From contig NC_081391.1 of assembly GCF_030684315.1 (NCBI RefSeq), forward strand, positions 13,059,342 to 13,123,341: 64,000 nucleotides of DNA, given 5' to 3'. The DNA comes from Stegostoma tigrinum (taxonomy: Eukaryota). Every line of letters starts with the position of its first letter. The first letter of the stretch is position 1. The notes beneath the pieces were generated by a model. That model was not told the origin of the DNA. It searched no databases and saw only the letters and a list, made by a program, of their open reading frames with translations. Shown one piece after another: positions 945-31,349 of the stretch. The translations under genes were made by a program, and so were the position numbers.

Positions 945-1658
945 AAGCCTGAGAGGGATGAGTGGGGTAACAGTCTGCAGGCAATGCAGGTTGCCCTGGA
1001 TGTGGAGAAGAATGTGAACCAGAGTTTGCTGGATCTACACCAACTCGCCACAGCCCAGACTGACCCTCATGCAAGCTTCACCTCTTCATTCTCATCACTG
1101 CCATGCCTCCTCAACTTCATTGGTTGGTCTTTGTGGAGTGGAAATTCGCAGACGTAACTTTGTCCAGATGCTACATTGTACCTTTGTCATCATAATTATG
1201 ATGACAATGTTCAACTGCTCAACACCGAACTGAAATAGGAATTTGGATTACAGTCCAGTGGGAATGCTGATGTGATTTTTGGCTGCTGAATTGGGGATTG
1301 TTGCACTATACAATACAACTTGGAGCTCTTTAAGAAGGTGAGATGGAGCAGCTGAAATGTCCTCACTGGCACAAATTCTCCACCTGTTAGCTAGATTTTC
1401 AGGGATGTCTAGAACTAGCTATGGCTCAGTCTTTTTCAGGAGGAATTGTGAAGTTGTCTTGGATAGTATAAATGTACCAAGTGTCATATTCCTCTGTTGC
1501 AGCTGTGTGACTTCCTGGAGACTCACTATTTGGATGAGGAGGTGGAGATCATCAAGCAACTCGGGGACTACATCACCAACCTGAAGCGCCTGGGAGCCCC
1601 TGAGAATGGGATGGGAGAGTACCTGTTTGACAGGCTCTCCCTGGAGGACAGCAGTTAG
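945..1658 (+). CDS. Ferritin subunit, copy A (partial: exons 3-4 only; 5' part lies outside the window)
   Basis: Exon 3 945-1070 ([42 protein letters not shown]) and exon 4 1503-1658 ([51 protein letters not shown]). AG acceptors; intron 3 donor is GC (GCAAGC at 1071); AATAAA at 1786-1791. Confidence 0.9.
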
Positions 1659-3389
1659 TGTGGCCTGGAGTACTGTCTGCTTGTTCTGAATGCATTCCCC
1701 ACTTCACCCTGGGCAACCCGTCTCATTCCAGGGAGAAGGGGCTTGTAGCAAAGAATGTAATGGCTGTACCAGCTGAATGCAAATGAATAAAATCATGTAT
1801 TGATCTTGCTTATTGTCCATCATTCAGAGCACTGGATATTTTGGGAGATATCTTATTGAGCTTGAAGGCAGTTCTCTTTCTGTAATTTGGCTGACCCAAT
1901 TACTAATTGGACATGAAAACAACCTTTCAATGGATGTATTTACTAACTCTCGATCATTGCACAGTAACTAGATGGACTTCCTTTTTCTCATGACACAGGA
2001 GACTCAAGACTTTCCCCTCTGAGTAGGATGAGGTTGGTGTTTCCCCAATTGTGGGGTGGAAAATCTTCCAGAGGTCAATTAGTACACTTCTGGATACTCT
2101 AGGTTCAATTGTCGATCAGAACTTGTCTTCCTTTTTGAGACAGGATGTTCCCGTACCTTCTCGAAGGGATAAACCAGACGCCCATTCCATAGGATGTGGG
2201 ATATCTACGTTCAATGCCAGGTTTCCCTTCCTACAGCCTCCCCTCAGTCACCACGAGCAATGAGATTTGTCACTCGGACGATAATCTAATGGGAAGACAA
2301 GTCTGTGATTTGGAGGCTGGATCAGTTGACAAAATGCTGGCGGGAGTAGATATATCAAGTTCTGCTCTAAATCCAGTTGCAGGAACCAGCTAAGTTAGGA
2401 AAGACACAGGCTTGACTCATCTGGTGTAACCTCCCCAGTGAGGCCCTACCATGACCAGTATTTTCTATTCTCAGCATTGTTGTTTTTGGTCTCCTGTGGA
2501 TGTAGCCTAGGGATCTTGGAGCCGGTTATGGATCAAAGCAGGACCAGCACTGGAGGCCTGTGACCTTCTGTTTCTCCCCATCTCTTGTTCCAGCCAACTG
2601 CAGTTGCACCCCCTACCCGGTTAAATCCCTCTTGACATTTCTGAGGGAGGGTGGCTGGACTCACTGTGGGTTGGCTTTTTCATTCCACCATCTGAGTAAC
2701 ATAGACCGCTCCATCTTTGCTCAAGAAGGAGTCAGTTCACACTGGGGCTGAGCTTTTCCCAAGAGCAATCCAAAATTGTCTTTACTGTGGCATCCTCCCC
2801 TTCTTCCTCCTCCTTTCTCCACCACACCCCCCCTTCTCTCCCAGCATTCACTCCAACAAGCTGCCCAGCCCAGATCTGGGAAAATTCAGCCCAACCGTTC
2901 ACAGAAGCCACTTACCAAGAGGTCAGCTGGAATTCCCCTGATCTGTATGGGATTACAATGTCTGCTCTCGATGCTAACAACAGGAAGTTGTAGTTTTTGC
3001 TGCAGAATCCCTCAATGTGGGCAGATGTCATTCAGCTAATTAAATTTGTAATGACCTACTGAGCAACCTCCTGCTCAGGGACACCCTATTCCCTTAATCC
3101 CACATTTCCCATGGCTAATCTAACAAATCCGAATGCCCCTTGTCACTGTCAGCAATTATCTTTGACAATCGACCTAATCTGCAGCCCATTGGACGAGGGG
3201 AAGCAGTCGGAGCAGATGGTGGAAATCCATGCAGACACAGGGAGAATGTGCAAACTCCACTCATGTTGCCAAAGGCTCGAATTGAACCAGAGTCCCTGTG
3301 GCTGTGACGTATCAGTGTTAACCACTGAGCCCCCATCACGTCCAAAAGTACCAAACAAAAGGGGGAGGCAGTTGCACAGTCATCAAGTC

Positions 3390-3852: not shown

Positions 3853-4663
3853 GATGTTCATTCTCAAATAGGGATATTGTTCCAGGCCAGGATGGAGACA
3901 GATTTACATGGAGCTGCTTGAGTGTTGCTGGGCCTGCACTGAGCCATAATTGTGAACAATCCCAGCACTATTAATTAATACTTACAAACTCTGGTCTTAA
4001 AGATCGCAGACAGGTTTTGGACAGTCAGGAGGAGTTGAGAAGTTCACAGCAGAATTCCCAGCCTATGACTTCCCAGTTTCTGAGCTGTTCGTTCTACAGA
4101 ATGTAATGTAAATAGCTGCAGAAACTCTCTGCTTCAAAACATGCTGGAGTTAAGTACCAGTTGTCCTTGAAATTGTTAAGAACTGAATACAGAGATAAAA
4201 ATGTTGAACTGCAATATATTTCCAACAGCTGACAACTGGGCCATTTAAATATAGAGGCCTGAGGCCTACTGTGTGCCTGAGGCACTCAGAATATTTCAAG
4301 TTTTAATTTTCGAACTAGGCTTTCTGAGATCTAACGTCAATGACAATCTGGCAGATTCAAAATGGATCCTTAAAGGACATCAGTTTCCTGTATTAAATGG
4401 TCCGGAAGCACAGGAATTCTGTTGCTGCACAGCGATAGGAAAATGTTTACTGTCAACAAAATCTGGCCATTTCTCACTGGGCTCCAACACCGTCGTTCAA
4501 AAGGTACAAAGAGGAATCCCTCAGAGTAACAAACTGACAGAATTCAGCAAATCTGTGATGAGCGTGTCTTAACACATAAACGCAGATACAAAAGTGAAGT
4601 TCTCGAGTCTATTTTATTCTCATTTTCAGGTTGAAAAACTTATACAATTTGTTCTTGCACAGG

Positions 4664-4850
4664 AGGTCAAAGGTCATTCAGCAATTCCATCATCCACCAG
4701 TTGTCAATTCTGATCGGTTTCTGGATCCAATTCCCATCCTGCACTGATTGGACGTGGCAACTGATCAATTGATTAACAAGAGTGATTGGCCATCACTGAT
4801 GATGTCATTTCCTGCTCAAAAAATGAGGGTCTTCTCCTGGAGTATAAATA
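4664..4850 (+). promoter_or_regulatory. Promoter of copy B
   Basis: DR1 AGGTCAAAGGTCA 4664-4676, ATTGG at 4747 and 4785, ACGTG, CAGTTG/CAACTG, TGATGTCA, TATAAAT 4843-4849 about 100 nt before the ATG; block conserved in all seven complete units. Confidence 0.8.
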
Positions 4851-4945
4851 GACCCCAATGGAATTGCTATTTTAGGTGTAGCTGATTTTCTTTCTATATT
4901 TATAATTTGGTTTTGTTGGATAAGGAAAGCTGTTTCTATCACAAA

Positions 4946-7900
4946 ATGGCCTCCCAGATCAGTCAGAACTATCACCAGGATTGTGAAGCTGCTGTCAACA
5001 AGCAGATTAATGTGGAGCTCACTGCCTCCTATCTCTATCAGTCTTTGGTGAGTGCTGTCCCTGTGGGGTTGGAGTTACTTCTGTTATGAAGTGAACTGTT
5101 TTTTTTTAACAAACTAGATTAACACTCTTGTAGACTTGTTTGTTTTTTTTTGTATCTCTCTTAGCTATTCCTTGATTCAGGGTAAATGTGGTGACAATGG
5201 GATATGATACTGATATGCAGCAACTGAGGCCCCAGTTGTCTCAATGATATGTGGAGGGTGAAGCATCTTGTGATTTATCTTACAATTCCTTTTTAGGGCT
5301 GTGATTGCCTATAACTGGCTGTGGCTCTCCATAATTTTCTAAACTGCTGTCAAGTTTCAATGATCAGTGATAACCATTGGCTAACTACCTCTTTAAATCT
5401 GCCTTGATGCATCTGTTTTAATTTTGTGCATGTAAATAAACAAACATACTGATTTTGGGTATTTACAATAAGGTGTTGTAGTAATTTGACAAATCAGATT
5501 TTTTTAAGCTGAACTGAAGTCCTTGAGGTAAGACAAGCTGCTCCCTGCTTAAGTAGGTCTCCTATGTTTTGGCTTTCTGTACCCTATCATGAGGTGGGTT
5601 TGATCCATCACTTCACAACCTGTAGAAAGTTGACTTGTTATAGGTGCCTGCCCCCTGCCCCCCCTGAACCCAACCCCCAAAGGGGGCTGCTAGAACATGC
5701 TGAGGCTATTGACCCAGAAATGAATGTTATTCCTTTACCTTTTATCCAGAAAAAACAAACTGGCTCCTCCCACCAGGTGGTGGTGCCCCTGTGCCCTTCC
5801 AAGGGGTAGAATGTGTTCAGAAGGTGTTGAGGTCCCCTTGGTGAGTGCTGCAGGGGACCTGGTAGATAATGGACCCTGAAAGGAGGTGGTGAATGCAGTC
5901 CCCATGAAGTGGGCAGCTCTGTCCTGGATGGTGTCTACTTCTTGCATGTTGTAGCTCCCGTTCTCCAGACACATGGAGAATATTCATCTCTCTCTGGGCT
6001 TGTGCCTGTTGCAAGGAAGTCCTCTCTGGGGACATGAGGATCAAGTCCCTATAACTACCTTTTTTGGGAGGAGGGAATAGCTTTAAATAGTGAACCAATT
6101 GTTGGGTTTTAGTCACTGACCACTGTCTCAACTCAATAGGGAATCTTGTGTGATGATGATAAAATCCCCACTATTCTTCACCTTCTACAACTTAACTACC
6201 CAATTAAACCACTTTTTTAAACTTTTTGTTTGTATTTGAGGATTAAACTAACTTCTCACCAGGATTCTACCAAAGAACAACTTCTTCTTTTGATGTCAAT
6301 AGACTGTTCCTAATCAGCAGTAACTTGTTGGATTGTGAATCTCAGTTGAAAAGTGAGTGAAATGAGTGGGGAAAACAATAGTTTAGCCTCTTGGAATAAG
6401 CTAAATGGAGCTCTCAAGCTTTGAACAAGTCAATCTATAGGTCACACAGTCCTGCAGATACCATTAGGTCTCCTGAACATTTGATCTTGTTTCAGTTGTG
6501 AATTTTAATGCTTTGCTTTGCAAGCTTCTGGCAACCTGAGTGCATGGCATAAACAAATGTGATAAACTATTGCTGCAACAAGCCAAAGGCTGTCACTGGG
6601 CAGGCTCTCCTTTAGCCCCAAGATTCTCCTAATCGCCCTCATTCTCCTGCATACTGCAAACACCATCTCTTGTAGAGCTGCTTTATGTAAAACAAAAATA
6701 CAGTACATCTGATCCAATTGGGTGCAGAGGACCTGTACCTACTAGCTACATTATATTCATGTCCAGCATCTGCATGCTACTCCAGCACCAGGGGAGACAT
6801 GTAATGACTTGAAGTTGCCTGACCCTGTGCACATCCTGCATTCCAGCTCCTGGCACTTGTTTAAACCCTATTCAGTTACCACTTCCATCCAATTCTGGAG
6901 GCTAGATGGTAGAAAGGTGAATTCAGCTCTTCTATCTAGGCTGTGCCAGACCCACGCCCCCAAACAATTCAGCAGGGTTTACAAACCAAAACACTGAATT
7001 TGCATCTTACATGGAAGAAGCTAGGGTTGTTTGGTTTCCTCCAATTAAAGGAGCTGCTGGCTAACTTTGCAACACCATTAGTGAACATTGTAAGGTGTCA
7101 ACAATTTTCAGCTGATTGAATCATTAGTTTGCTTTAGACTAAACCAGTCCTCCAGTTCTGAGCATGAGAAATGGGGTCAATGATGTGTTTAATGGGCTTT
7201 AACTTTTGTTCTCCCTTCCAGATGTCCTACTATGACCGGGATGATGTGGCCCTCGCCCATGTCTCCCGGTTCTTCAAAGATCAGTCCCAGGAGAAGCAGG
7301 AACATGCAGAGAAGCTGCTGAAATTCCAGAATCAGCGTGGAGGCAGAGTCCTCCTCCAGGAAGTGAAGGTTGGAGTTGGGGAGGGGGGGTGCTGGTGTGG
7401 TGTGCAGGAATGGCAGCTCATGGTGTTTTCTGTTAATAGTGACAAGATTTTCATGTGGTAAAGGATGTGAAGGTTGGAGTTGGAGAAGGCAGGCAGTGGG
7501 GAGGAGATGTGAGAAATGGCTGCTTATGGTGTGGTTTCATGTCCTGAAAGAAAGTGAAAACTGTTTTGTTTGGCTCCCCTCCTTTTGACTAAAAGGAAAG
7601 AAATCTGAGAAACAAGCCTCTTGGCTCCCCTCCACCTGCTGCTTCCCCACCCCATGCTGACCTGATAAACACCAAACCACATTAATCCCATTTACTGCAC
7701 TTGGTCTACAGCCCCCATGGCATTGGTAGTTGTCTAGAAGCTGCTTAAATATTGCAGCAGTAGATGGCTCCCCCACTGCCCCACCCCCCCATATTATTTT
7801 TCCACTGGCCTCTTGGCAAAGGATTCCTCTAACCTGCTGACTCCTCACATCAGTGCCCTCTGGTCTTAATGTCTCTTTCTCCCCACCCCCTCATAGCAGA

Positions 7901-9587
7901 CACTCCCCATCTACTATCAAGACTCCACACTAATCAAATGCCATCACATAAACATCTCAACTGACTTCACTCTGGGGATTGGAGTGAGAGATCTAATCTC
8001 TCCTTTTAATGGATTTTTCAGCCTTGGGGCAACGTCCTGGTGACCCTTCCAGTGCCATTGTGGCTCCGGTCACCACACAGTATTCCACCTTTGCATGGCC
8101 AATGCTGCAAAGTTTGTGACAAGACTGGAGTCCCTGTACTGTGCCCCAAGAAATGGGGAAGGGCATTGTGGAAGCCAACTTCCCCATCCTGTCTACACTT
8201 ATGGATCCTTGAAATATCTCTAGTCTTGTTCTCTTGGTTCCTTTATTGTCAACATATTGCTGTCACTTCAATGAATTAAATAGTAGTGATGCTTTTGATC
8301 ATTCAGGTCAGTCCGAGATGAAGCCATAAGCACAAGTGGGACTTCAACCTGGGCCTATGCTCCAAACCTAGGGACAGTACCACTGCTTAACGAGCCCTGG
8401 GATTAAGTTGTGAATATCCTCCTTGGGATGCCATCAGATGGGCACTGACAATTCTGTGCAAACATAACTCTTATCCCCACTATGACCTGGTCGTGAATTG
8501 AGTCTCCTTTCGGAAGAAGCAATAAGGGCTAGGTGAAAGCAATTGTTACATAACTGATCTGTTCTTCCTAAGGACTTCAGGGATGGCAGTAGTTAGCACA
8601 ACTGCATCAGTGCTTGGGGCACAAGCTTAATTCTGGAGTTGACATGTTCACCACATCTCTACATAGGCTTCCTCCCACAGTCCAAAGATGTGCAGGGTAG
8701 GATAGGGCATGAAAAATGCAGGATTACATGGCTGGGGCTAGGACCAGGTTGGATGCTCTTCAGATGGTCATGAGTGGGCAGAATGGCCTGATGCATGCTG
8801 CAGGGATTTTGTTTGAGGCTTACCTGTCCTTCTTTGCATCCTCAGAAGCCAGAGAGGGATGAGTGGGGTAACAGTCTGCAGGCAATGCGGGTTGCCCTGG
8901 ATCTGGAGAAGAATGTGAACCAGAGTTTGCTGGATCTACACCAACTCTCCACAGCCCAGACTGACCCTCATGTAAGCTTCACCACTTCATTCTCATCACT
9001 GCGAGACCCTCAGGGTAACACTTCATTGGTTGGTCTGTGTGGATTGGAAATTCACAGGTGTGCACTGATCACTTTGGGTCCATGCTGCTGAGCAGTTGTT
9101 ACATGGTGATCAGTAATGAAGTGAAATGGGAGTTTGGAAGGCAATCCATTGGGAGTGATGAAGTGATATTGGCCATTGAATTCCCATTCTCACTTGGGAG
9201 CCTTACAGTGGAATGATCATTGTCCATCACCATCCAACTCAGCTCCACTTCACAAACAGCAAGATGGAGCAGCTGAAATCCTATTGTCCTCACTGGCACA
9301 GATTTTCCAGGTGTTAGCTAAATTTTCAGGGCTGTATGGAACTAGTATGGTAAAGCCTGTTTTTCAGTGGGAATTCTGAAATTGTCTTGGATAGTGTTAA
9401 TGCACTCAGTTGTCATATTCCTCTGTTGCAGCTGTGTGACTTCCTGGAGAATCACTATTTGGATGAGGAGGTGGAGATCATCAAGCAACTCGGGGACTAC
9501 ATCACCAACCTGAAGCGCCTGGGAGCCCCTGAGAATGGGATGGGAGAGTACCTGTTTGACAGGCTCTCCCTGGAGGACAGCAGTTAG
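4946..9587 (+). CDS. Ferritin subunit (L-like/hybrid), copy B, 176 aa, 4 exons
   Basis: Exons 4946-5047, 7222-7368, 8846-8971, 9432-9587, all phase-0 GT-AG introns at the canonical vertebrate ferritin positions. [29 protein letters not shown]...DRDDVAL...QNQRGGR...EYLFD; AATAAA at 9717-9722. Confidence 0.95.
5780..6060 (-). mobile_element. Degenerate LINE remnant in intron 1 (paralogues ~14570-14710, 23330-23610, 32180-32470, 40700-40840, 51940-52230, 59770-60050)
   Basis: Minus-strand [13 protein letters not shown] resembles the LINE ORF2 C-terminal LD.IQ.KA.RLIG motif. Confidence 0.55.
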
Positions 9588-11680
9588 TGTGGCCTGGAGT
9601 ACTGTCTGCTTGGTCTGAATGCATTCCCCACTTCACCCTGGACAACCTGTCTCCTTCCAAGGAGAAGGGAATTTTGTAGCAAAGAATGTAATGGCTATAC
9701 CAGCTAAATGGAAATGAATAAAATTATGTATTGATCTTGCTTATTGTCCATCATTCAGAGCTCTGAATACTTTGGGTGATAGCTCTTGCTTGAAGCCAGT
9801 TCTCTTCTGTCATTTGATTGGTCCAATTTCTAATTGGACTGGGCAACCCTTCACGGAATCGCTCACTATCCCCACATTAGAACGTAACTAGATGGAGTGT
9901 TTTTTGGTTATTCCTGTGGAAATTGAAGGTGCTTCTCCTCCAAATAGGATAAGGTTGGGATTTGTCAATTGTGGCATTGGCTTTCTTCTAGAGGACAATT
10001 AGTGCGCTTCTGGATATGGTGGGTTCAACTGTAGCTCAAAGAAATTGTCTTGCTCTGGTGACAGGAAGCTCCCACACCGTCCAAAGAGACTTCTCTACCC
10101 AGCCTGATAGAATTTGGGATAGTGGTGTTCAATTGCACATTTCCCTTGAAATCTCTTCCCCGCCTCAGCCATCCTGCGTACTCAATTATTGCCTGAATGA
10201 TGACAGCAACAAAAAGTGAAGACAGCCCTTTATCAACTGACCCAGCTGCCTAATCACAAACCTCTAAAGGTAGAGGCCCAGCAGGCTCTGATTTCAATCC
10301 AGCTGGCGGAAGCAGCAGAGGTGTGAAACAATCTCGACTGCCTGGTATATCTTTTTTTTTTCCCCATTGGGCCCTACCCTGACCAAAACACACTATATTC
10401 TCAGTATTGTTACTTTTGGTTTCACCATCCCAAACTGTGGCTGGAGCTCTTTCTCTTCCGCCTCTCCCCGCTTCTCTTTTTTTTCCACCCCCCCCCCCCC
10501 GACCCGACCTCTTCGTTCTTTTCTTTCCACGTGCCCCCACCAGCCTAAACATTCACCACAGCCCCTTCCCCTGGGAGTCAGCACAAGACATTCACCTGAA
10601 CTGTACTGTATTATAATGCAGGGCTTCATTGCCGCTTACAGCAGGATAACAGGGACCTGGGAATAACACAGCAATGCAGCTGGTTAAGTGCTGCTGTTTG
10701 ATTGGCTCTTGTTGCTAATGCCAGCATTGAGCGCACTAAGCTGCTCCCTTGGTTCCTCTGAGCTTCCCACATGGTGAACATTACTCCTGATGCAGGTTGA
10801 TTGGGTGAAATCACATTGAAGGAGCAAAGTGGCTCGGAGAGGAGACATGGAGATGCTGACTTTCCTTTACGGCTGCTTCCTTTATCTTTCAAGGTGTCAG
10901 AGATCATGGGTTCGTGAGGGGGCTCTCAGAGACATCCTGAGGATTGTTCCAGGGAGTTTTGTAGCGAGTGCACACTGCAGCCTTCATAGAGGTGGGGGGG
11001 GTGCTGCAGAGTCAAAAAGCACTCAACATATTTGTTCCACCACATAAAGCAATTTATTTTCGGTGAAAATAAGTCTTGGCTACAGTAACCCTCAAGTGCA
11101 GGAAGGGACCATTAGGCCCATTAAATCTGCATCGACCTTCTGAACAGCATCCTCCTTAGACCCAACCCCTTTGCCTTAACTCCACATTTCCCACGGCTAA
11201 TCGACCTAGTCTGCAGGCCCCTGCTCACGATCGACAATCTGTAAATCATTGGGCTGTGTGAGGAAACTCAAGCACCTGGAGGAAATCCACGCAGGCCATC
11301 ACCCATGGGTAGAACCGAACCTGGGTCCCTGGCACTGAGCCGCCAAAACATTCTAAAGTACCAAAGGAAAGGAATACACTGCGGCAAACTACGTCATGGG
11401 AATAGACTCTGCAGCCCAGCCCGAACTTGCAGACCAGGTTTTCATAAACTGTGTAGTGCCATTTGCCTACATTTGGCCCATCTTTCTCGAAACCGTTCCT
11501 TTCCATGTAAATCTCCAAATGTCACTTAAATGTTGTAATTCTATCCACCTCTACCACTTCCTCTAGCAGCTCGTTCCACACACGCACTACACTATGTGTG
11601 AAAATGTTGTCACTCATGCCCCTTTTAAATCTTGCCCCTCTCCCCTCAAACCAATACCCTCTAGTTTTGGACCCCCCCCA

Positions 11681-12648: not shown

Positions 12649-12838
12649 AGGTCAAAGGTCATTTCAGCAATTTCATCAACAACCAGTTGTCAATTCTGAT
12701 TGATTTTTTGACCCGATTCCCATCCTGCACTGATTGGATGTGGCAGCTGATCAATTGATTAACAAGAGTGATAGGCCATCACTGATGATCTCATTTCCTG
12801 CTTCATAAAATGAGTCTTGGCTCCTGCAGGATAAATAG
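12649..12838 (+). promoter_or_regulatory. Promoter of copy C (TATA changed to GATAAA)
   Basis: Same conserved block; DR1 12649-12661; GGATAAAT at ~12829-12836. Confidence 0.72.
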
Positions 12839-12923
12839 AGTCCCACGGCAGGGATGTTTACTGTTGCTCTTAACTTTGTCATTTTTGTGGTGAGGAAAAT
12901 AAAGCAAGTGTTTCCTTTATAAG

Positions 12924-15900
12924 ATGGCCTCCCAGATCAGTCAGAACTTTCACGAGGATTGTGAAGCTGCTGTCAACAAGCAGATTAATGTGGAGCTCAC
13001 TGCCTCCTATCTCTATCAGTCTTTGGTGAGTGGTGTCTCTGTTGGGTGAAACATACTTCTGTTCTGTTGAAGTGAACTCTTCCCCTTGGATGTAATTAAG
13101 TTGTCTATCTTCTAGACTGAGTTTTGTGGCTCCTACCTCTTTCTCAATGCAGGATGAGTGTGATGTTACTGTAACAATAGTTTGGTGTCTAATGTTACTG
13201 TAACTTGGGTCCCAGTTGGTTGTCAGTGAGATGTGGAGGGTGGAGTGTTCTTGTAGTTACTTGCCTGTCCCATGATGGTGCTGTGACTGGTGGTAATTAT
13301 CGCTTCCTGTGACTTTGTTTGAAACTTGAGGGAACTAATTTAAAAATGAATTGGGACTCACCATTGTGGGAACGGAAGCACCATCAGCTAGTCACTGCTT
13401 TTCTTTTCCCTCCTGTATCCTTGTTTCTATTTGAATCTTGTGGGGATCTGAAGTAAACCTGCCAATTGATACTGAGAATCTTGGTTTCCTATTGCAATCA
13501 GCTTAGAATAGGCTTGTTCTAGCCCTGCAGAGCTGGGCCGAGAGGTGGCAAATGGAGTTTAATGCAGACAAGTGTGAGGTGATGCACTTTGGTAGGAGTA
13601 ACCGGAAGGCAAAGTACAGGGCTAATGGTAAGATTCTTGGTAGTGTAGATGAGCAGAGAGATCTGTGTCGATAGACACGGATTGTTGAAAGTTGCCACCC
13701 AGGTTGACAGGGCAATTAAGGCAGTGTTTGGTCTTTAATTAATAGAGGATTGAGTTCTGGAACCAAGAGGTTATGGTGAAGCTGTACAAAACTCTGGTGC
13801 AGTTGCACTTGGAGTATTGCGTACAGTTCTGGTCACTGCATTATAAGGATGTGAAGCTTTGCAAAGGGTGTAGAGGAGATCTACTAGGATGTTGCCTGGT
13901 ATGGAGGGAAGATCTTGTGAGGAAAGGCTGAGGGACTTGAGGCTCTCTTCATGAGAGAGAAGAAGGTTGAGAGGTGACTTAATTGAAACATATAAAATAA
14001 TCAGAGGGCTAGATAGGGTGGATAGGGAGAGCCTTTTTCCTAGATGGTGATGGTGAGCATGAGGTGGGGTAGCTTTAAATTGAGGGCTGATAAATATAGG
14101 ACAGATGTCAGAGGTAGTTTCTTTACTCAGTAAGGGAATGCAATGCTTTGCCTGTGACAGTAGTAGATTTGCCCACTTTAGGTACACTTAAGTCATCATT
14201 GGATAAGCAAATGGGCGTACATGGAATAGTGTAGGTTAGATGGGCTTGAGATCAGTATGACAAGTCGACACAACATCAAGGGCTGAAGGGCCTGCACTTT
14301 GCTGTTATGTTCTAGTTTCAGATTAAACTGGGTGAGGTTGTGACTCTTATCTGATTAAGCAGATCTCCATTTGAAATCTACTTTGCTTTTCTTCATACTC
14401 ATGAGGTGGGTGTGGGCTGTCTGTATGTCAAGTGTTGGAGCTTTTCAAAGGCACAGCACTGCCATGGGGCTGAGAATGGACGAAGGGTACTGACCCAGTG
14501 ACTATGGTAAAAAGTTTATGCCTGTTGTATTTGGCCTGATTCTAAACTAACTGGCCCCTCTTTGCCCAGGTGGGGTGCTTGTGCCCTTCCAAGGGGTAGA
14601 ATGTGTTTAGAAGGTGTTTACGTAACCTTAGTGTGTGTTTTAGGGTGCTCTCTGAGCTTGTCCCTGTCAGCAGGAAGTCTCCTCCTGATGAGGATCAAGC
14701 CCCTGTCAGCCCCACTTTGGGAGGGGGAACAGCTTTCATTGAGCTAGCAGTTGGGTTTTAATCACTGACCCACTGTCCCAACACACCTTGTAAGCATGTG
14801 CCAGGAATGAAATCCTTACTATTCTACATCTTCTAACTGCACATTTAAATCGCAAAGATAAATTGTGCTTGTGTTTGCATTTGAGAATTGAAGCAACTTT
14901 TTTCAGCAGGATTCGTAAGAATGTGCTTGTTACCGGCTGCTTCCAATAGCAGACCTGTTAAACCTCAATACATTGAATTGTGAACATCCTGGTTTAGAAA
15001 TCTACAGGACTTTGCCTGTTGGATTAAGTCAACAGTGGTTTTTCCAGGTTAATGAGGGATCTTGTCTAGAGAGTAGTTGATCTGCAGATCACTGTCATAT
15101 TTGTCATGTGATCAGTTTCTTTTGTCAGTCTTTCTTTCATGTGTAATGGTACAAGTTGCTAGCAGTCTGAGTCAGTGCAGCTGTTTTAGATGCAGCAGTA
15201 AACTGTTGCAGTAACAATCCAAAGGCTGTCCTTAGGCAGGCTTTCCTTGGCAGATTCTTGGAGCTAACCTCCTTCATTATCTCCTCATGCCTCCCCAGCC
15301 ACCCCAATACTGCAGTTCTTGTCAAACTAATAGATACAGTGCATCCAATTGCATTGATCCTGACTAAGCAGAAAATGTGCTCCTTCCTAGCTGTTAATTG
15401 CAGTGTCTAGGATCTGTTTTCTGGTCTTTGCCAAAGCAGCAATACAGTGCCCTGCAGCTGTTCTATTGGTGTAAATCCTGCGCTCCAGCCCTTGGCATTT
15501 CTTGAAACCCTATTCAATCAAAGATTTATCCCATTTCTAGTGGAGGTTAATCAGTAAAAACATCAATTCACACTTGTTCTCACCAAATGCTGTGCCAGAC
15601 CCTCCTGGGCAATTTGCCAGGAGTTTCAAACCAAAATAAAACACATGGTATTTACAGCTTACCTGGAGGAAGCTGGGATTGTTTTGATTTTTCCAATTCA
15701 ACAGCAACTGCTCAAAACTGGGTTCTGAATTGTTAATGCATCAGGTACTTAACAGCTTATTGTCAGTTTGACTTTTTGAGAATGCTCAAGTAGCCCTGTA
15801 GTTCTGAACTGAAATTGGCCCACGACTTGTTAATGGACTTTACCTTGTTCTCCCTTCCAGATGTCCTACTTTGACCGGGACGATGTTGCCCTTCCCCATT

Positions 15901-18130
15901 TTTCCCAGTTCTTCAAACATGAGTCTCAGGAGAAGCGGGAACATGCAGAGAAGCTGCTGAAATTCCCGAATCAGCGTGGAGGCAGAGTCTTCCTCCAGGA
16001 TGTGAAGGTTGGAGTTGGGTGGGGAATGGGATGGTCATGGCTGCTCTTGTGGTGTGGTTTCAAGTCAGTGACAAGGTTTTCATTTGAGTCAAAACTTTGT
16101 TCAACCTGTTTGATCTCCTTTTTGAATCCAGTGTAGAAAGAAGCCCTTTCGCCCACCATGTCTATGCTGACCGCACAAACACTAAACAACATTAATCCCA
16201 CTTACCTGCCCTTGGTCCACAGGCCACTGTCCTGGCACTAAGTACTTGTCCAGCTGGACCTTAAACTGATCTGGAGTAGCTGACTCCACCACCATTCAAA
16301 CATTTTAGGTGGGTCATCTCATATTTCTAACAACCCCTCGGAGGAGGGTGAAGAGAAAGTTTCCTCCAATCCCCTCTAACCTGCTTACTCCACAAACCTG
16401 GTTTCTCTCTGGTCTTGGTGTCTGCCATGGGGAAGACATTCCATCAACTGGCCACTCTCTATTCTTCAATAATTACATCAGGTTACTCCCTCAGCTGTTC
16501 CTGCTCCACAGAAAATCCCAGCCTATCTAACATCCAATCAATGGATCTTGGGCAACAGCCTGGGGAACCTCACCAGCTTCCCCCTGCAGTGCCATCCTGT
16601 CCAGGTGACTGGTGAGGCCAAAGAGGGAATAATGTGGTGACTAGAAGAACAAATTGTAACAAGACTGGTCCCCTTCCTGTTCCACCCCACCAAACTAATA
16701 GAGGTTGCTTGCCCTCTGTCACTGTTACACCCTGTTGACCTTGTCTGAACTTTGAGGGATCTATGGTTGTGGGCCTTTCTTAACTGTTAGCAGCACAACA
16801 CACTTTGCAAACACCTCGCTGTCCCTTGGATGAATTAAATAGCCGTGATGTTTCTGATCATCCTGCTCAGGCATGTATGAAGCCACCAGCACAAGTGGTA
16901 CTTGAACCTTGGCCTTGTCAGCCAGAGACAGGGGCACTACCACTGTACCATGACAGCATTTAGGATTCACTCGTGAATATCCTCGCAATTCCATCAGATG
17001 GACCCTGATGCAAATCTTGTCATTATCCCCCACAATGACCTGTTATTCACCTTCCTCCTTCAGATCAAGGACCGACAGGCAAGGTGAAAGCAATTCTGAA
17101 GGAACTGTTCTTCAGCTGTGCTCCAGGGCTGCCTCAGGGGCTAGCAGTGTTCTCAGTGCTAGGGACACAGGTCTGGATCTGGCCTCTGGTGAGGGACTGG
17201 TGTTGACATGTCCTCCCCATGTCTGCGTTGGTGTCCTCAGAGTATAAGAGGATTGGCCATCTGAAATGCAGGGTTACAGGAATAGGGTGGGAGAAGGACG
17301 AGTTGGGATCCTCTTCAGAGCAGTTACAGACTGATCCACGTTGTAGAGATTCTGAAGCTTAACTGTCCTTCTTTTCCCTCCTCCAGAAGCCAGAGAGGGA
17401 TGAGTGGGGTAACAGCCTGCAGGCAATGCAGGTTGCCCTGGATCTGGAGAAGAATGTGAACCAGAGTTTGCTGGATCTACACCAAGTCGCCACTGCCCAG
17501 ACTGACCCTCATGTCAGCTTCACCTCCTCATTGACTTCACTGCTAGGCCCTCAGGGCAACACCTTCATTGGTTGGTCTTTTGTGGATTAGAAAATCAGTT
17601 AGACTTTGTTTTTGTGCAGATGACATGGATCACTTCAGATCCATAGTGATTACAAAATCATTGCTGAGCAGTTGAGTCCAAGTATGTATTTTAACTTGTA
17701 AACCTATGGGGAGGACTGAGGGGATATTGGTCACTGAATTCTCATTCAGAACCACTGCAGTGGAATGACTTTTGTCCATCAAGTCAACTCTGCTCCAGTA
17801 AATAAACAGCAAGATGAAGCAGCTAAAAAGCAGTTGTCCTCTTTGCACAATTTCTCCAGGCGTTGGCTCTAGTCATCCCTGACAATCTCCCTCCATATGC
17901 ACGTTTTTCAGTGGGGATTCTGAAGTTGTCTTGGATAGTGTTAATGTACCAAGTGTCATATTCCTCTGTTGCAGCTGTGTGACTTCCTGGAGACTCACTA
18001 TTTGGATGAGGAGGTGGAGATCATCAAGCAACTTGGGGACTACATCACCAACCTGAAGCGCCTGGGAGCCCCTGAGAATGGGATGGGAGAGTACCTGTTT
18101 GACAGGCTCTCCCTGGAGGACAGCAGTTAG
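12924..18130 (+). CDS. Ferritin subunit, copy C, 176 aa, 4 exons
   Basis: Exons 12924-13025, 15861-16007, 17387-17512, 17975-18130; open frame. Carries Q>P in KFPNQRGG and a TATA>GATA change; AATAAA at 18258-18263. Confidence 0.92.
13526..14314 (+). mobile_element. CR1 LINE 3' fragment in intron 1 of C
   Basis: Matches 21285-22085 (CTGCAGAGCTGGGC...GGAGTATTG...TTATGTTCTA). Confidence 0.88.
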
Positions 18131-19873
18131 TGTGGCCTGGAGTACTGTCTGCTTGGTCTGAATGCATTCCCCACTTCACCCTGGACAATCTGTCTCCTTC
18201 CAGGGAGAAGGGGCTTGGAGCAAAGAATGTAATGGCTGTACTAGCCAAATGGAAATGAATAAAATGATCTCTTGATCTCCGTTCCTGTGCATCATTTTGA
18301 GACCAGTGATACCTCTCTTTGGTCAATCAAGCTTTCTTGCCTCACTTGACCACTGCTTTTCCCCAACCCCTTTGGACAGACTCCAGGCCTATGGGAGCCA
18401 GTTGTGGTTCAAATGGGGCCTGTGACCTACCCTTACGACAACCATCAACTGGTGGTCCTGCTGACCAGTTCACTTTGTCACTGAAGTCTGCTGCTCCTCC
18501 CAGGGGCCCTTGGGTTTTCTGAACTTTCTTGGTTCAACTGCGTAGATTTGTTTTTCCCCGGAAGGAATCCAAAATTCCTTAAAGGGGCTTCCTCAGTTTT
18601 TAGCTTTCTTTCCTTCGCCCAGGGCTCAGGCCCTCCCCATAACTGGAAGTCCACCAGCCCTGAGCTGGGGAAATTCAGCCCAAACATTCTCAACAGTCAC
18701 ATTCCAGAGAATCATCTCCAGATTCTCTGGGGCTACTTGATTGATAGTGGATGCTCTTGATACCATAAATACAAGGATTGGTGACCTGGGGCTTGGATGA
18801 TAGCCCATGGTTCAAAATACTCACATTTGGTTTAAGCTTGCAGCTACAACTGGCCTCTGACTGTTGAAGGGTTTGTACAAAAAGCTGCTGCCTTGTTTCT
18901 TGGAACCTTTCCATGGGCTGATGAAATTTTTTTTGACCCAGTGAGGGAGCAGGGATTTCTGGGGAAGTTGGGGACTGTCTCCTTCAGTCAAGATGCCTGG
19001 ACATGCTGACTTTGCTGTACAACTGTTTTCTTGATCATTCAAGGTGTCTGATCATGGGTTAGGGAGGGGGTGATCAGAGACAGCCCAGAGATTGTCTTGT
19101 TTTGGCGTGAGTGCACACTGTAGCCTTAGAGTGTGGGTCATTAAGGTACTGAATATATTTGTTCCATCACAAAAATCCTTGTTGTTTGGCCCAGTCTCTA
19201 TCATTCGTGATAGAATCCCTGCTCTCTGGCAAGAGGCCATTTGACCCAGGTAGCATCAACCTTCTGACCAGCATCCTGCTCAGTCCCACCCCAGTCCTTT
19301 AACCCTGTGTCTTCCCCATGGCTAATCCAGCTTGCCCCTTGTCAATATCGCCAACTTAGCATTGCCTATCCACTTGACCAGCAAATAGTTCAGATGGTGG
19401 GTGGGAAACCAAACAGACACTGTAAATGTACAAACTCCCCAGGGTGCCCTAAGGCTGTAATAAATCCCATGTCGCTGTGAGGTAAGTGTTCGTTACTGAG
19501 ACACTGTCTCACCCTAAAGTACCGAACAAAGGAATATGCTGTTGCATACTGTCAGAGTCCTACAGCAGAGATACAGGTTGTTTGGCTCAAACTGTCCAGG
19601 CCGAGCAGTGTTCCAAATCTGAACTAGTTGTGTTTGCCCCGTTTCCCTCAACCAGCCCTTTCCCTGGAAATCACCAAATGTCTTTTAACAACTGCAATTG
19701 CACCCACTTCTCCTGCTTCATATAGCAGCTCATTCTTGACCTAAACCATTTTCTGTGGGAAAAGCTCTTCTTCAGCTTCCCCCCCCCCCCCTCCCCCACA
19801 CACACACCAACCAACCCCACATGCCTGTGTGTGAAAACATTGCCCCTACCACCTCTAGTTTTGGACTCCCCTA

Positions 19874-22291: not shown

Positions 22292-22478
22292 AGGTCAAAG
22301 GTCATTCAGCAATTCCATCATCGACCAGTTGTCAACTGTGTTTCGTTTCTGGATCCAGTTCCCATCCTGCACTGATTGGACGTGGCAGCTGATCAACTGA
22401 TCATCAAGAGTGATTGGCCATCACTGATGATGTCATTTCCTGCTTCATAAAAAGAGGGTCTGCCCCTGGGGTATAAAT
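22292..22478 (+). promoter_or_regulatory. Promoter of copy D
   Basis: DR1 22292-22304, two ATTGG, CAGCTG, TGATGTCA, TATAAAT 22472-22478. Confidence 0.8.
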
Positions 22479-22564
22479 AGAGTCCCACGGGAATGATGTT
22501 GATTGTTCTTCCTAATTTTGTTATTTTGGTGGTGAGGAAAATAAAAGAAATTTATTGTCACAAG

Positions 22565-25500
22565 ATGGCCTCCCAGATCAGTCAGAACTATCACCAGGAT
22601 TGTGAAGCTGCTGTCAACAAGCAGATTAATGTGGAGCTCACTGCCTCCTATCTCTATCAGTCTTTGGTGAGTGCTGTCTCTCGGGGTTAAACATATCAAT
22701 CTGTTCTGTTGAAGTAAATTCTTTGCCTGGCCTCTAGTGAAGCTGACAATCTAGTAGATTGAGGTTTTGTGGCTCCTACCTAAATATCAGTTCAGGATAG
22801 AGGTGGTGTTACTATCACGATGGTGTAGGATACTGATGTATGTTAACTCAGGTCCCAGTTGGCCTTCAGTGGTATCTGGAGGGTAAAAGCCTCTTGCTTT
22901 TGTTTTCTTTCTGACACAAGTTTCCTGACTTCATTTGCCTGATCTCTGTGGTGGTCCTAAACAAACATGCTGATTTTTTTTAACACTGACTATAACAATA
23001 ACTTCCCTGTTGCAGTGGCCCTTGTTAGTCTGAACAAACCTGAGGCTAGTCTGTGACTGGTATCTATTTTATGTGGATCTCCTTCATTGAGGCTGACTTG
23101 GCTTTACTTGTATTTATTCAAGAGGTGGGTGTGGCCTATCCCGTCCCCACTGAGAGTTGATCTGCTGTGTGTGAGAAATGTTGGATCCCCTCTCTGCCCC
23201 CTCTCCTCCCCACCCCACCCCACACTGGGGCTGCGGGAATGTGCTGAGGCTATGAGCCCAGTGACATTGAAGAAATGGAGGTTGTTCCCATATCATTTAG
23301 CTTGACCTAAAACAAAATGTCCCCTCTATCCCGGTGGTGATGTGACTGTGCCCTTCCAAAGAGTAGAATGTGCTTGGAAGGTATGTGTTGAAGTAACCTT
23401 GGTGAGTGCTGCAGGGGACCTGGTAGGTAATGGACCGTGAAAGGAGGTGGTGAATGCAGTCCCCATGAAGTGGGCTGCCCTGTCCTGGATGGTGTCTGCT
23501 TCTTGCATGTTGTAGTTCCCCTTCTACAGACACACGGGGAATATTCATCTCTCTCTGGGCTTGTGCCTATTGGAAGGAAGTTGTCTTGTAATGAGGACTA
23601 AGTCCCTATAAGCCTCACTTGGGAGGTGGGACCGCTTTATTGGTGAGCCAGTTGTTGGGGTTTAATCACTGTGTCCCAACTCTATTGGCACATGTTTCCC
23701 AAGGATAAAATCCCGACTATCTTCTGCCACAACTTGTAACTACCCACTGAAACCACAGATATTTGCTTGCCTGACTGGTTTTTGGATTTGAGGATTAAAG
23801 TAACTTTACAGGAGTCCTTCCCCAGAATGTAATTCTTAGCTGATGCTTCCAATAGCGAGCATTAGCTCTTAAACCCTAACATCGAATTGTGAACATGACA
23901 GTTGAGATATGAGTCACATGGGCTGAAAACCTACAGGATTTTTTGCCTGTTTGGGTAAAGTCAGGGCAAGTGTTTTTCCAGGTTACTGTTTTCACTAGTG
24001 ACGTTATCTACAGGCCACTAATAGTTGACATTTGATCATTTGTCTTGCAATTTGTTTCAGTCATGTGACTTGGTGCAAGTTTTTGACAGCCTGAGTTTGC
24101 ACTATTTAGGCAGAGCAATAACCCACTGCTGCAACGATCCAAAGGCTGTTACTGGGCAGGCTTTCCTCGGCATTATCTTAGTGCCAAACTCCATACTGGA
24201 GACAGCACACCTTTGTAGAGTTCATGTGTACACTTACATCCCAATCTCATTGATCCTGGGTTTGCAGAAAACATGCTCCCTACTAGTCGTTGACTACAGC
24301 AGGGTTTCAACATCTTTTTTCCAGTTTTCCCCAAAGGCAAAACATAGTGCCTTGCGTCTTGTAGTTGAGAACTGGAATGGGGAGTGAGCCAGTGATGTCT
24401 GATGTAATTTTAACTTGATCTTCCAGATGTCCTACTTTGACCGGGACGATGTTGCCCTCGCCCATTTCTCCCGGTTCTTCAAAGATCAGTCCCAGGAGAA
24501 GCGGGAACATGTAGAAAAGCTGCTGAAATTCCAGAATCAGCGTGGAGGCCGAGTCCTCCTCCAGGATGTGAAGGTTGGGGTTGGGTGGTGGGGGAGTGCA
24601 GGGGGGAATGGCTGCTCTTGCGGTGTCATCTCCAGTGACAAGATTTTCAGATCCTGAGCGAGTGTGAGAAGTTCTTTTGCTTGGCTTCCCTGTTTGCTCT
24701 CATCCATCAGCATTTATGCAAGCCCTCTGGTCCACCAGGCCTATGCTGATGCAGCAAAGACCGAACTGTACTCACCCTGTACTTGGTCCAGGCCCTACTA
24801 TACCCTAGTGTTTAGCACTCGCCCAGCTAGTCCTTTTAAACAGTGCTGCAGTAGCCGTTTCCAGCACTTTGTTCTTCCGTTCCCCAACACACCCACCAAA
24901 TTTCCTCCAATCCCCTCTATCCTGCTTCCTCAAACCTGTGCCCTCTGGTCTTAGTGTCTGCCATGGGGAAGACATTTTCCCCATCTACTGTCCAGACTTC
25001 CTTGTCTTCCATCAAACAACCACCTCAGCCTCACCTGCTTAAAGGAAAACCCCCAGCCCATCCAATCTCTCTCCTCAATGGATTTTCTGTCTTGGGGAAA
25101 CAACCTGGGGACCCTCACCAGCACCCCCTGCAGTACCATCCTGTCCTTCTGACCAGTGAGCCAACGATAGAATGCAGCAGAGACCGGAAGAACAATTTTC
25201 ATAAAATGTGTTCAAAGGACTTGTCCCTGTGCTGTTCCTCACAACCCTGCCCCAAACTAACACATGTTACTTGGCCTATGTCCCCTTTCACACACAGTTT
25301 GCCTTGTGTGAGCATTGAGGGATCGATGACCCTGTGTTTATTGTAAGCACATTACTGCCCCCCACAATGAATTCAAGTAATGATGGTTCTGACCATGCTG
25401 CTCGGGCATGTATGAGGCCACAAGCACAAGTGAGACTTGAACCTCAGCCTTGTCAACCGAAGCTTGGGACACGACCGCTACTTTCCCCACAGCCCTTGGG

Positions 25501-26715
25501 ATTCACTCCTGAATATCCTTTTTAAGACTCCAGCAGATGGACACTGGTGCAAATGACTAATCTGGTACATATTTATTCCCTGTGGTACAAGGATATGTTC
25601 CTGAACTTCCGGCTTCAGGTCAAGGATAAATGGGGCAAGGTGAAAGGAGTCACCAAGTAGCTAATGTTTTCTTTATCTGGACTTCAGGGATGGCACAGTG
25701 GCTCAGTGGTTGGCACTGTTGACTCAGTGCCAGGGGCACCAGTTTGGTTCTGGCCTGTGACGAGAATTTAAACGTTATCCCAAAGCATGGCTTCCCCACA
25801 CAGTAGAAAAGAGGATTGGCAACTTGAAATGCAGGTTACACGAACAGGGTGGGAATGGGACCAGATGGGATGCTCTTCAGCAGTTATGGTCTCAATGGGG
25901 TGAATGGCCAGCTCCCATGCTGCAGGGATTCTGTTTCTGAAGCTTACCTGTCCTTCTCTCCATCCCCAGAAGCCAGAGAGGGATGACTGGGGTAACAGTC
26001 TGCAGGCAATGCAGGTTGCCCTGGATCTGGAAAAGAATGTGAACCAGAGTTTGCTGGATCTACACCAACTCGCCACAGCACAGACTGACCCTCATGTAAG
26101 CCTCACCTCCTCATTCACATCACTGCTAGACTCTCAGGGTAACGTTTCATTGGTTGGTCTGTGTGGATTGGAAATTCACTGAAGTAACACTTTCCATCCA
26201 TTACTTTCCTGAACTATTGTCACATTGATCACTTGGGATCATACTGATTACAATGAGGGATAAGGGGAATTTGATCTATAATCTAGTGGAAGTGCTGAAA
26301 TGACGTTGGCCACTGAGTTCTTCATTAGCATCATTGCAGTGGAATGATCATTGTCCATCACAATCCAACTCAGCTCCATTTCACAAACAGCAAGATGGAG
26401 CAGCTGACATGTTGTCCTCACTGGCACAAATTCTCCAGGTGTTAGCTCGCTTTTCAGGGCTGTCCAGAGCTAGTCATGGCTAAGTCTGTCTTGCAGTGGG
26501 AATTCTGAAATTGTCTTGGATAGTGTTAATGTACCAAGTGTCATATTCCTCTGCTGCAGCTGTGTGACTTCCTGGAGACCCACTATTTGGATGAGGAGGT
26601 GAGGATCATCAAGCAACTCGGGGACTACATCACCAACCTGAAGCGCCTGGGAACCCCTGAGAATGGGATGGGAGAGTACCTGTTTGACAGGCTCTCCCTG
26701 GAGGACAGCAGTTAG
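22565..26715 (+). CDS. Ferritin subunit, copy D, 176 aa, 4 exons
   Basis: Exons 22565-22666, 24427-24573, 25970-26095, 26560-26715; GT-AG; AATAAA at 26843-26848. Confidence 0.95.
25688..25925 (+). mobile_element. tRNA-derived SINE remnant at the end of intron 2 (paralogues ~678-900, 8580-8800, 17135-17340, 34848-35030, 43085-43290, 54582-54770, 62586-62810)
   Basis: GGGATGGCACAGTGGCTCAGTGGTTGGCACTG (A-box-like head), followed by CCCACAG...AAATGCAGG...GGGTGAATGGCC, typical of shark SINEs. Confidence 0.65.
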
Positions 26716-28359
26716 TGTGGCCTGGAGTACTGTCTGCTTGGTCTGAATGTATTCCTCACTTCACCCTATGCAATCTGTCTCCTTCCAGGGAGAAGGGGCT
26801 TGTAGCAAACAATGTAATGGCTGTACCAGCTGAATAGGAATGAATAAAATGTGTTGATGTTGCTTATTGTCCATCATTGAGACCCTTGATATTAAAGAGC
26901 TTTTGAGAGCTTCAAGCCTGTAATTTTGGCTAATGAAATTATTAATTTGACAAAATATTTCCCTGGTCTTCCCTCCAACACCACCCCAGCATCAGTCTCG
27001 GAATTCCTGTGGAACTTCCTCTAAGTTAGGAACCCAAGTTATTCCTCCAGCCAGAACTTGAGGTTGGGGCCTGTTGGGTGTAAAATCAGTTTGTACTATT
27101 ATCTCACACCCAGGTATGATGAATACATGTGCTGTTAAAATTTTCATTGCTCTCAAAAGAGAAAACACCCCTGCTTGGCCGAAAGAAAGACTTGACACCC
27201 ACTTTCACTGAAACAGGGCTGTTGGATGCTTTATGTTCATGTCGAGTTTGCTTAGCAATAGCTTCCCTGTCAACCTCCACCAACCGAGACTTATTGCTAC
27301 AGTCCACACAAATCACAAGTTGATGCCAATGTAAATTCTGTGCCAGCTGGCTCAGCTTGCCTCAACAAGAGCTTAAGGGAAGAGATCCAGCAGCGTCCCC
27401 GCTCTAGCCTTGTGGAGGAACCAGCAATGCTGGGAGCAATAAAATTGAACTGAGCAACGGGGATCTGACAAACCTGATCTATTCTATTCAAATCAATGTT
27501 ATTACTTTTTCCGGACAGTGCATCCTCGATTCACTGAGACCCAGTTGAGGTTCAAGCTCAGACCAGCCCTGTGGCCTCCTGACCCCGACCACCAACTGCC
27601 TGCCTCAGGACAGCCATCAGCAGTTGCTCACAATGACCAGTTCATTTGTTCCTTCGCCTGAGGAACGTGCGCTGCTCTCCCAGGCGATATGGATTCAATA
27701 CCCATTGTAGCTCGACAAGAAAGCTCACACTGGGGGAACCATTTCCCAGGAGTAATCCAAAGCTGTCCTCATGTGGCTTTGCTCCGTTTACTTTCTTGCT
27801 CTCTGCCAAGTCTTGGTCAAAAACCCCACCACGCCTAGTAATAAACTTTAGGCCAGCTAGCCCAGAGATGGGAATATTCAGCACAAGTCTGCTTGAAAAA
27901 ATTCACCTGAACTGGATGCGCTTAATGGCACCGACAGCAGGATAACAGTGACCTGGGAATAACACAGCAACGCTCATGGCTAAATGCTGCCATTTGATTG
28001 GCTCTTGCTGCTGAAGCCTGCATTGAGCGCACTCAGCTGCTCCCTTGTTCCTCTGAGCTTCCCCCACGGGGAGCGTTACTCCTGATGCAGGTTGATTTCA
28101 CCCGATCACATTGAAGGAGCAGTGTGACTCAGGGAGGAGACCTGCAGATGCTGACTTTCCTGAATGGTTGCTTCCTTTATCTTTTGAGGTGTCAGAGATC
28201 GTGGTTTAGGGAGGGGGCTATCAGAGACATCCTGGGGAATGTTTCAGGGAGTGTTGTAGCGAGTGCACACTGCAGCCTTCACTGAGGGTGTGGGTCTTTA
28301 AGGCACTGAATGTATTTGTTCCACCACGTAGAGTTTTATTTTAAACCATCTTGAGTCTT

Positions 28360-31065: not shown

Positions 31066-31255
31066 AGGTCAAAGCTCATTCAGCAATTCCATCATCGACC
31101 AGGTGTCAATTCTGATCGTTTTCTGGATCCAATTCCCATCCTGCACTGATTGGACGTGGCAGCTGATCAATTGATGAACGAGAGTGATTGACCATCACTG
31201 ATGATGTCATTTCCTGCTCAAGAAAATAAAGGGCTGCTGCTCGAGTTAAAAAAAT
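31066..31255 (+). promoter_or_regulatory. Degenerate promoter of pseudogene E
   Basis: DR1 mutated to AGGTCAAAGCTCA, second ATTGG changed to ATTGA, TATA changed to GTTAAAA (~31245). Confidence 0.65.
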
Positions 31256-31349
31256 GTCCACGAGAGTGTGATGTTTATGGTGTAGTTGGTTATCTTTCCA
31301 AGTTTGTTATTTGATTTTGGAGGAAAAGGAAAGCTATTTTCTTAATAAA

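Follow-up and report, generated by a model that had tools for sequence, protein, structure and literature searches.

The absence of a canonical iron-responsive element (IRE) from the predicted 5' leaders of a tandem ferritin array in the carpet shark Stegostoma is well supported by the sequence comparisons described below, and the proteins of that array fall in a shark-only clade whose subunits carry lysine at position 62 of the ferroxidase centre. The reading favoured here, to which a probability of roughly 0.55 is assigned, is that these genes encode IRE-free ferritins of the ovary or oocyte, belonging to that old, shark-only clade. While an earlier, sequence-only reading of this DNA had singled out the missing IRE, the E62K and Q141E substitutions of the intact copies are probably more worthy of attention; that reading missed the E62K shark-only clade, which lies in a family reported to be ovary-expressed in another shark and which provides the context that, in our judgement, best explains the loss of the element.

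Self-comparison and six-frame reading of the window (the whole 64-kb stretch that was analysed, + strand) revealed eight ferritin genes, A to H, arranged head to tail. Seven copies of this carpet-shark array (B to H) retain a 5' end, while copy A (945..1791) is partial, and is represented by exons 3 and 4 and a 3' UTR, with its 5' end beyond the window. The seven copies of exon 1 begin with ATG codons at 4946, 12924, 22565, 31350, 39079, 51147 and 58938 (B to H, in order), and each of these genes contains four coding exons. In copy B, coding exon 1 (4946..5047) is followed directly by a GT donor, exon 2 (7222..7368) encodes K62, exon 3 (8846..8971) is seen spliced to both of its neighbours in a DNA contig, and exon 4 (9432..9722) encodes E141 and carries the stop codon (9587), a conserved 130-nt 3' UTR and an AATAAA motif (9717). 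Open frames of 176 amino acids are also present in copies C (12830..18263, with a variant TATA box at 12830 and AATAAA at 18258), D (22472..26848; TATA 22472, AATAAA 26843), F (38985..44215; TATA 38985, AATAAA 44210), G (51037..55782; TATA 51037, AATAAA 55777) and H (58835..63734; TATA 58835, AATAAA 63729), the last being a recent duplicate of B; the proteins of the six intact frames are alike at 161-170 of 177 positions. Copy E (31246..36055), which has a degraded TATA box, lacks two nucleotides in exon 2 and is consequently frameshifted, and is probably a pseudogene. Intron 3 of copy A has a GC donor (1071-1072) and exon 2 of copy F an AAG acceptor (41811-41812).

The array grew by block duplication, and its higher-order blocks reveal the order of that growth: the segment 876-9986 is found a second time at 54879-64000 (96.3% identity). 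Further block duplications relate 12210-18710 to 38362-44677 (88-92%) and 31029-36101 to 50819-55827 (86%). Sequences of other kinds are interspersed with the genes. A 729-aa open reading frame on the - strand (44993-47182), with related fragments near 33886-34147 and 52716-53880, is presumably a Penelope-type reverse transcriptase with a C-terminal GIY-YIG-like part, and a second set of mutually related fragments (13525-14318, 20827-22099, 29457-30738, 39678-40452 and 48673-49948), found in both orientations within introns and near several promoters, is taken to derive from a CR1-like LINE reverse transcriptase.

The interval 4850-4945 extends from the last base of the copy B TATA box (TATAAATA, 4843..4850) to the base that precedes its ATG. 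Directly upstream of that TATA box lies a block of 183 nt (4660..4842) that displays a mean identity of 90% across the seven copies, and relative to which the TATA box occupies an identical position in all seven. The motif table for this block in copy B comprises a DR1-type repeat (4664-4676), inverted CCAAT boxes (4744-4751 and 4782-4789), the motif TGATGTCA (4800-4807) and an ETS-like site (4807-4814); the names DR1, CCAAT and ETS-like are used here as assumed consensus labels for putative sites. The inverted CCAAT box and the ETS-like site are present in all seven copies. The DR1 repeat is perfect in five of the seven promoters (at 4664-4676 and at equivalent positions beginning at 12649, 22292, 50856 and 58656), carries a single mismatch in each of copies E and F, and has no perfect counterpart in the window outside the promoter blocks. 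The anatomy of the block and its TATA box is that of a proximal promoter.

A canonical TATA box is found in five of the seven copies, copy C carrying GATAAATA and copy E TTAAAAAA in its place, and the distance from the start of that box to the ATG amounts to 103, 94, 93, 104, 94, 110 and 103 nt in B to H. The sequence-only reading had given about 90-105 nt between a TATA position and the ATG; the measured range is 93-110 nt. Transcription very probably begins about 30 nt past the TATA box; with the start placed at TATA+30, copy B would have a U-rich, IRE-free leader of 73 nt (4873..4945). T content 3' of the TATA box is 35-42%, as compared to 28% across the window, in agreement with the T-rich character that had been attributed to these leaders. 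The assignment of the TATA-to-ATG stretches as 5' UTRs follows from the position of the TATA box, and the conservation of the block beside that box while the leader drifts argues indirectly that the stretches are true leaders. An intron within the leader was considered and rejected, as the copies share no donor or acceptor there.

The search for an IRE was conducted using several criteria. The loop motif CAGWG occurs in none of the seven TATA-to-ATG stretches, and the Rfam IRE_I model (RF00037) yielded no match in the window at gathering scores or at E<=10, nor in 4560-5060 when that segment was scanned alone. The same model scored all three vertebrate ferritin H cDNAs used as positive controls at 53-56 bits, but at E<=1 it missed the clear cap-proximal IRE of an invertebrate-type ferritin (L005), and a rule-based scan was added for that reason; a divergent IRP-binding element could likewise evade Rfam. 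In its strict form (an unpaired C and a 5-bp upper stem under the loop), the rule-based scan recovered the IRE in all four control loci (L005-L008) and found none on the + strand of the window, the single match with a mismatch (at 44792) being far from all leaders. In its relaxed form it returned 55 matches across the window, of which none falls between any TATA box and its ATG. A custom model (R1) built from the IREs of L005, L006 and L008, whose matches to those controls are thus obtained by construction, gave a best unfiltered window score of 11.9 bits (E 1.4), and never matched a leader. The leaders are accordingly negative in all seven copies by Rfam, rule-based scan and custom model alike, which upholds the claims of the sequence-only reading that every visible 5' UTR lacks an IRE, and that neither a CAGTG loop nor a C-bulged stem is present; the Rfam scan that it had proposed as a check, run on the genomic window, pointed the same way. 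On these grounds the leader may be regarded with high confidence as IRE-free.

The weight of that absence depends upon the comparison that is made. Forty Markov simulations gave an expectation of approximately 0.3 strict IREs per 64-kb strand, so that finding none in 60-80 nt is the chance expectation, and is informative only against homologous ferritin genes, which do carry the element. The presence of an IRE in the shark ancestor is itself deduced solely from the invertebrate and bony-vertebrate controls. A possible relic of the IRE loop (GAGTGT or GAGAGT, 16-17 nt past the start of the TATA box in copies E and G) was rejected: it lies 5' of the expected transcription start, has no stem in the relaxed scan and is absent from the other five copies.

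As for the reference sequences, the metagenome loci L001-L004, in which no strict IRE was found, have short and possibly truncated leaders and were left out as controls, and L009-L011, which have no 5' ends, fell outside the Rfam scan. L008 groups with fish H ferritins. The IRE-bearing loci L006-L008, together with L009-L011, are vertebrate ferritin H cDNAs; they occur on short contigs filed under bacterial genomes, and represent contamination; P0115, labelled an Aeromonas ferritin, groups with shark ferritins and is read in the same manner. L005 (regions 812-931 and 1827-1933) is an intronless gene with a TATA box, a cap-proximal IRE at 843-878 and a long hairpin 3' of the gene.

Comparison of the seven copies with one another demonstrated a pronounced contrast between the promoter and the leader that follows it. 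Gap-free identity is 0.90 for the promoter block, 0.65 for the leader, 0.65 for the start of intron 1, 0.73 for intron 3 and 0.92 for the 3' UTR, and the same order is obtained when gaps are counted. Pairwise identity of the leaders ranges from 47 to 95% (mean 65%), so that the divergence previously ascribed to them holds on average but not for the pairs B/H and C/F, which are 95% alike. Across the six intact frames the mean pN is 0.027 and the mean pS 0.087, a pattern indicating that the intact copies evolve under purifying selection. Synonymous sites are 91% identical (8.7% differ), well above the introns, and because synonymous divergence is so far below that of the introns, it is probable that conversion between the copies contributes to the high identity of exons, promoter and 3' UTR. 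Whether or not conversion operates, the leader displays no sign of a retained element, be it an IRE or a substitute. The 3' UTR (9588-9722 in copy B, and its equivalents) may represent either a regulatory element or a conversion tract; no U-rich CPE-type motif was found in the 3' UTRs of the array.

These observations bear directly upon the proposal, made in the sequence-only reading, that the array has escaped iron-dependent translational repression and is controlled by transcription and gene dosage. The lack of a canonical IRE and the retention of the promoter while the leader drifts favour the escape and the transcriptional control, and a conserved promoter block combined with an unconstrained leader would fit such control; a part played by gene dosage is conjectural, and the loss of the IRE is best viewed as one ancestral event that was copied by duplication, rather than as seven independent losses. 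Because the 3' UTR is as conserved as the promoter, post-transcriptional control may act by another route.

The residues of the ferroxidase centre are taken to be E27, Y34, E61, E62, H65, E107 and Q141 (numbering of L006). Of these, E27, Y34, E61, H65 and E107 are kept in all six intact copies, whereas positions 62 and 141 carry lysine (K62) and glutamate (E141), so that the centre is not of the H/M type; the threefold-channel residues H118, C130, D131 and E134 are kept in all six. As a review of FTHL17 reports in its accessible text that E62K is sufficient to abolish ferroxidase activity in that protein (PMC7760355), the K62 subunits of the array are strongly predicted, by analogy, to be without such activity.

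The closest matches of the exon-2 and full-length queries were carpet-shark ferritins (Stegostoma, Chiloscyllium and Hemiscyllium). One of these, the Stegostoma protein P0008, is 98% identical to copy G, and aligns from residue 1 to 176 with M ferritin chains with no signal or transit extension, as do cytosolic ferritins of vertebrates. Two quick trees (77 and 44 rows) placed the proteins of the window in a clade confined to sharks (SH-aLRT 99 and 100) that spans four shark orders, with Heptranchias, Mustelus, Cetorhinus, Carcharodon and carpet sharks among its members; K62 is found in all 15 rows of the clade, while E141 is confined to the nine carpet-shark rows. In those same quick trees the clade is separate from FTH1, frog M and mammalian L chains, with deep forks unresolved, and a tree in which it was constrained to group with five L chains of mammals was not rejected (AU p 0.273), in a set without amphibian L chains; FTHL17 sequences were outside both trees. 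A second multi-copy clade of cartilaginous fishes (15 rows) retains E62 in 15 of 15 rows and Q141 in 14 of 15, and there is a hint that the two clades are linked in Stegostoma, Heptranchias, Cetorhinus, Carcharodon and Mustelus, in each of which the records of the two clades show an identical length for the longest contig. The multi-copy condition extends across shark orders, with eight genes in 64 kb here and up to 76 sequences in a single protein cluster.

Additional information was provided by four runs (X1-X4), which are contigs of one DNA sample and which were mapped to 4300-9800, with the introns covered. A DNA contig of low depth (window positions 7357-9571) has exons 2 and 3 joined in three of the four runs and exons 3 and 4 joined in all four, with an 80-nt gap in exon 4; its joints agree with the splice sites assigned here, and it is likely a processed retrocopy, which would imply that some member of the family is transcribed in the germ line (as judged from one sample). 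Summed depth is far greater over the promoter block and exons (1574-4289 in X1) than over most intron bins (21-134), a contrast that is not a copy number but is in line with many copies. Within intron 2 of copy B (approximately 8666-8701) lies a short fragment of a repeat with a very high copy number, at a summed depth of about 2-3.5 x 10^5. A scan for viral contigs returned no loci.

The mechanism proposed for the array may be summarized as follows. The ancestor of the intron-containing, cytosolic-type shark clade would have lost its 5' IRE once; each copy would be driven by the compact TATA promoter directly 5' of it; and its short, U-rich leader, having no conserved element, would leave IRP1 and IRP2 unable to repress translation, so that output would depend on transcription and copy number, and possibly on the conserved 3' UTR. 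The setting would be the ovary or oocyte, in which large amounts of ferritin shells may have to be produced at a time of low cytosolic free iron. Since low free iron is precisely the state in which the IRE blocks ferritin translation (as described in the accessible text of PMC11719527), loss of the IRE together with gene amplification would solve the need of the oocyte, and the shells so produced could provide a large, yolky egg with its iron reserve. The K62 subunits would act in the manner of L chains, in shell building and mineral nucleation, within mixed shells formed with the second multi-copy shark clade; such co-assembly with the intact-centre clade is slightly favoured here. Expression of the array in the ovary is likely, by analogy with the Greenland shark, in which the largest ferritin cluster is ovary-specific according to the accessible text of a preprint (10.1101/2024.09.09.611499). 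A bolder and rather doubtful extension is that a dedicated system of oocyte iron-banking, with hundreds of IRE-free genes in two co-clustered classes (one intact and one an E62K, re-invented L chain), evolved before squalomorph and galeomorph sharks split; its uncoupling from IRP would allow giant yolky eggs to receive iron even when the cytosol contains little of it. If that were true, the IRE loss, E62K substitution, multi-copy state and germ-line expression of FTHL17 would represent a solution reached more than once among vertebrates, and the array could serve as an abundant and tractable model for the function of FTHL17-type subunits.

Several other explanations were weighed against that reading. 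The genes might be free of an IRE and yet somatic, forming a reserve, inducible by stress, hormones or diet, that is located in the liver, the gut or many tissues and is controlled transcriptionally through the DR1 repeat and neighbouring sites. This is unlikely, if the strongest of the alternatives: the DR1 repeat, perfect in five of seven promoters, fits nuclear receptors of liver and gut as well as the ovary. Tandem arrays need not be ovarian, given that the fthl27 array of the hadal snailfish shows high expression across most tissues (PMC10746142, in its accessible text), and a ferritin whose gene identity is not stated is listed among the liver-only proteins of the spiny dogfish in the accessible part of PMC5568229. 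Against a somatic array stands the sole expression statement that was found for a shark ferritin cluster, which (in the accessible text of 10.1101/2024.09.09.611499) is that of ovary-specificity, and a K62 subunit alone could not detoxify Fe(II) if E62K indeed abolishes activity. Less probable still is a role like that of FTHL17, in which the K62 protein would be a germ-line, non-storage (regulatory or structural) factor, or in which the array would mostly reflect birth-and-death turnover with little benefit from dosage. The shared E62K substitution, with other centre residues largely kept, would suit such a role, and a non-storage function has been proposed for FTHL17 (accessible text of PMC7760355), while the block duplications and the one pseudogene among seven copies would suit turnover; the retention of the threefold-channel residues in six of six intact copies, the purifying selection on those copies and the existence of a partner clade that is catalytically intact (as judged by its residues) all count against it.

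The remaining alternatives would restore iron-dependent translation. Its persistence through a non-canonical IRP site or some other element, whether located in the leader or within the conserved 3' UTR, appears improbable: the 3' UTR is 92% identical among copies and Rfam can miss true IREs, as with L005, but conservation of the leader does not exceed that of intron 1, relaxed-loop hairpins are absent from it, and the best R1 match, given above, lies outside the leaders. Least probable is a transcript that starts at an upstream non-coding exon bearing an IRE and spliced in before the ATG, a possibility that the sequence-only reading had itself raised. An acceptor-like pyrimidine tract followed by CAG does occur near 4630 in B and at its equivalents in C and H (with TAG in F), and AG lies immediately 5' of the ATG in four of seven copies; but the former is missing from D, E and G and the latter from B, E and G, and no common donor-like site is found within 1.5 kb upstream. 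The spacers of 2.9-6.8 kb upstream of B to H, all of which are wholly within the window, contain no strict IRE on the + strand, which disfavours such an exon, since it would have to sit past the neighbouring gene.

The ferritin IRE is a textbook translational switch, kept from invertebrates to mammals, and the reading of the array as IRE-free ovarian ferritin would make it an old, selected, intron-containing family of vertebrate ferritins in which that switch was dropped where ferritin must precede iron. IRE-less ferritins as such are already known; what appears to be new is that the loss is a mark of an E62K clade of sharks that is old and has retained its introns, within an expansion that has been reported as ovarian. 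The array thereby offers a mechanistic reading of a shark ferritin expansion that was reported earlier but unexplained, and cautions against interpreting such expansions as adaptations for longevity or against ferroptosis, or their members as orthologues of FTH1 and FTL. The ovarian reading also makes a simple prediction that can be checked in public shark RNA-seq data. A literature search, which covered subscription journals in small part, found no account of the IRE status or of E62K in shark ferritins.

The closest comparison is offered by the Greenland shark, in which 155 'FTL' and 179 'FTH1' copies were reported in ancient clusters (10.1101/2024.09.09.611499, accessible text); neither 'IRE' nor 'iron' occurs in that text, which contains no analysis of IREs or active sites and does not say what type of subunit the ovary cluster expresses, and its two counts may in part reflect the same loci matched twice. 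The clusters of Greenland and white shark resemble the array in their very high copy number, clustering, age and two subunit labels. The Greenland shark genes were, however, called FTL and FTH1, whereas the proteins of the window fall in a shark-only clade, and orthology of the ovary cluster to the array is an assumption. The tandem expansion of snailfish fthl27 is likewise similar in form, with no mention of an IRE in the accessible text of PMC10746142. Mammalian FTL shares K62 and E141 with the shark proteins, but the latter keep E27 and H65, where three marsupial L chains have Y/H and G; in addition, FTL mRNA carries an IRE (PMC11719527 and PMC7760355, accessible text), while the array has none in its 5' leaders, and the two do not group in maximum-likelihood trees, though such a grouping is not rejected (AU p 0.27). 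The M ferritins of amphibians and fishes are the top matches of solved structure (176 amino acids, aligned over their full length at approximately 69% identity), but retain E62 and Q141 where the array has K62 and E141.

Precedents for the absence of an IRE, and for ferritin in eggs, come from more distant systems. The yolk ferritin mRNA of the snails Lymnaea and Biomphalaria has no IRE and is tied to the provisioning of eggs (PMC10799875, accessible text); the array shares that absence, but the snail protein carries a signal peptide and a 42-aa insertion, whereas the shark protein has neither and aligns end to end with the 176-aa M chain. Schistosome ferritin mRNAs also lack an IRE, as indicated by the title of a reference in PMC1488847, and ferritin transcripts are abundant in zebrafish follicles (PMC1488847, accessible text). 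Among mammals, FTMT stands outside IRE/IRP control, and FTHL17 is expressed in germ cells and is multi-copy in mouse (PMC7760355 and PMC8051100, accessible text); the absence of an IRE from mouse Fthl17 was asserted in the sequence-only reading, and the paper on that gene (PMC2887969) mentions neither IRE nor iron. FTHL17 and the mouse Fthl17 cluster resemble the array in carrying E62K, in keeping most other residues of the centre and, in mouse, in being multi-copy, whereas the shark genes differ in retaining three coding introns. FTHL17 is an X-linked mammalian gene derived from FTH1, and its likeness to the shark array would therefore be convergent.
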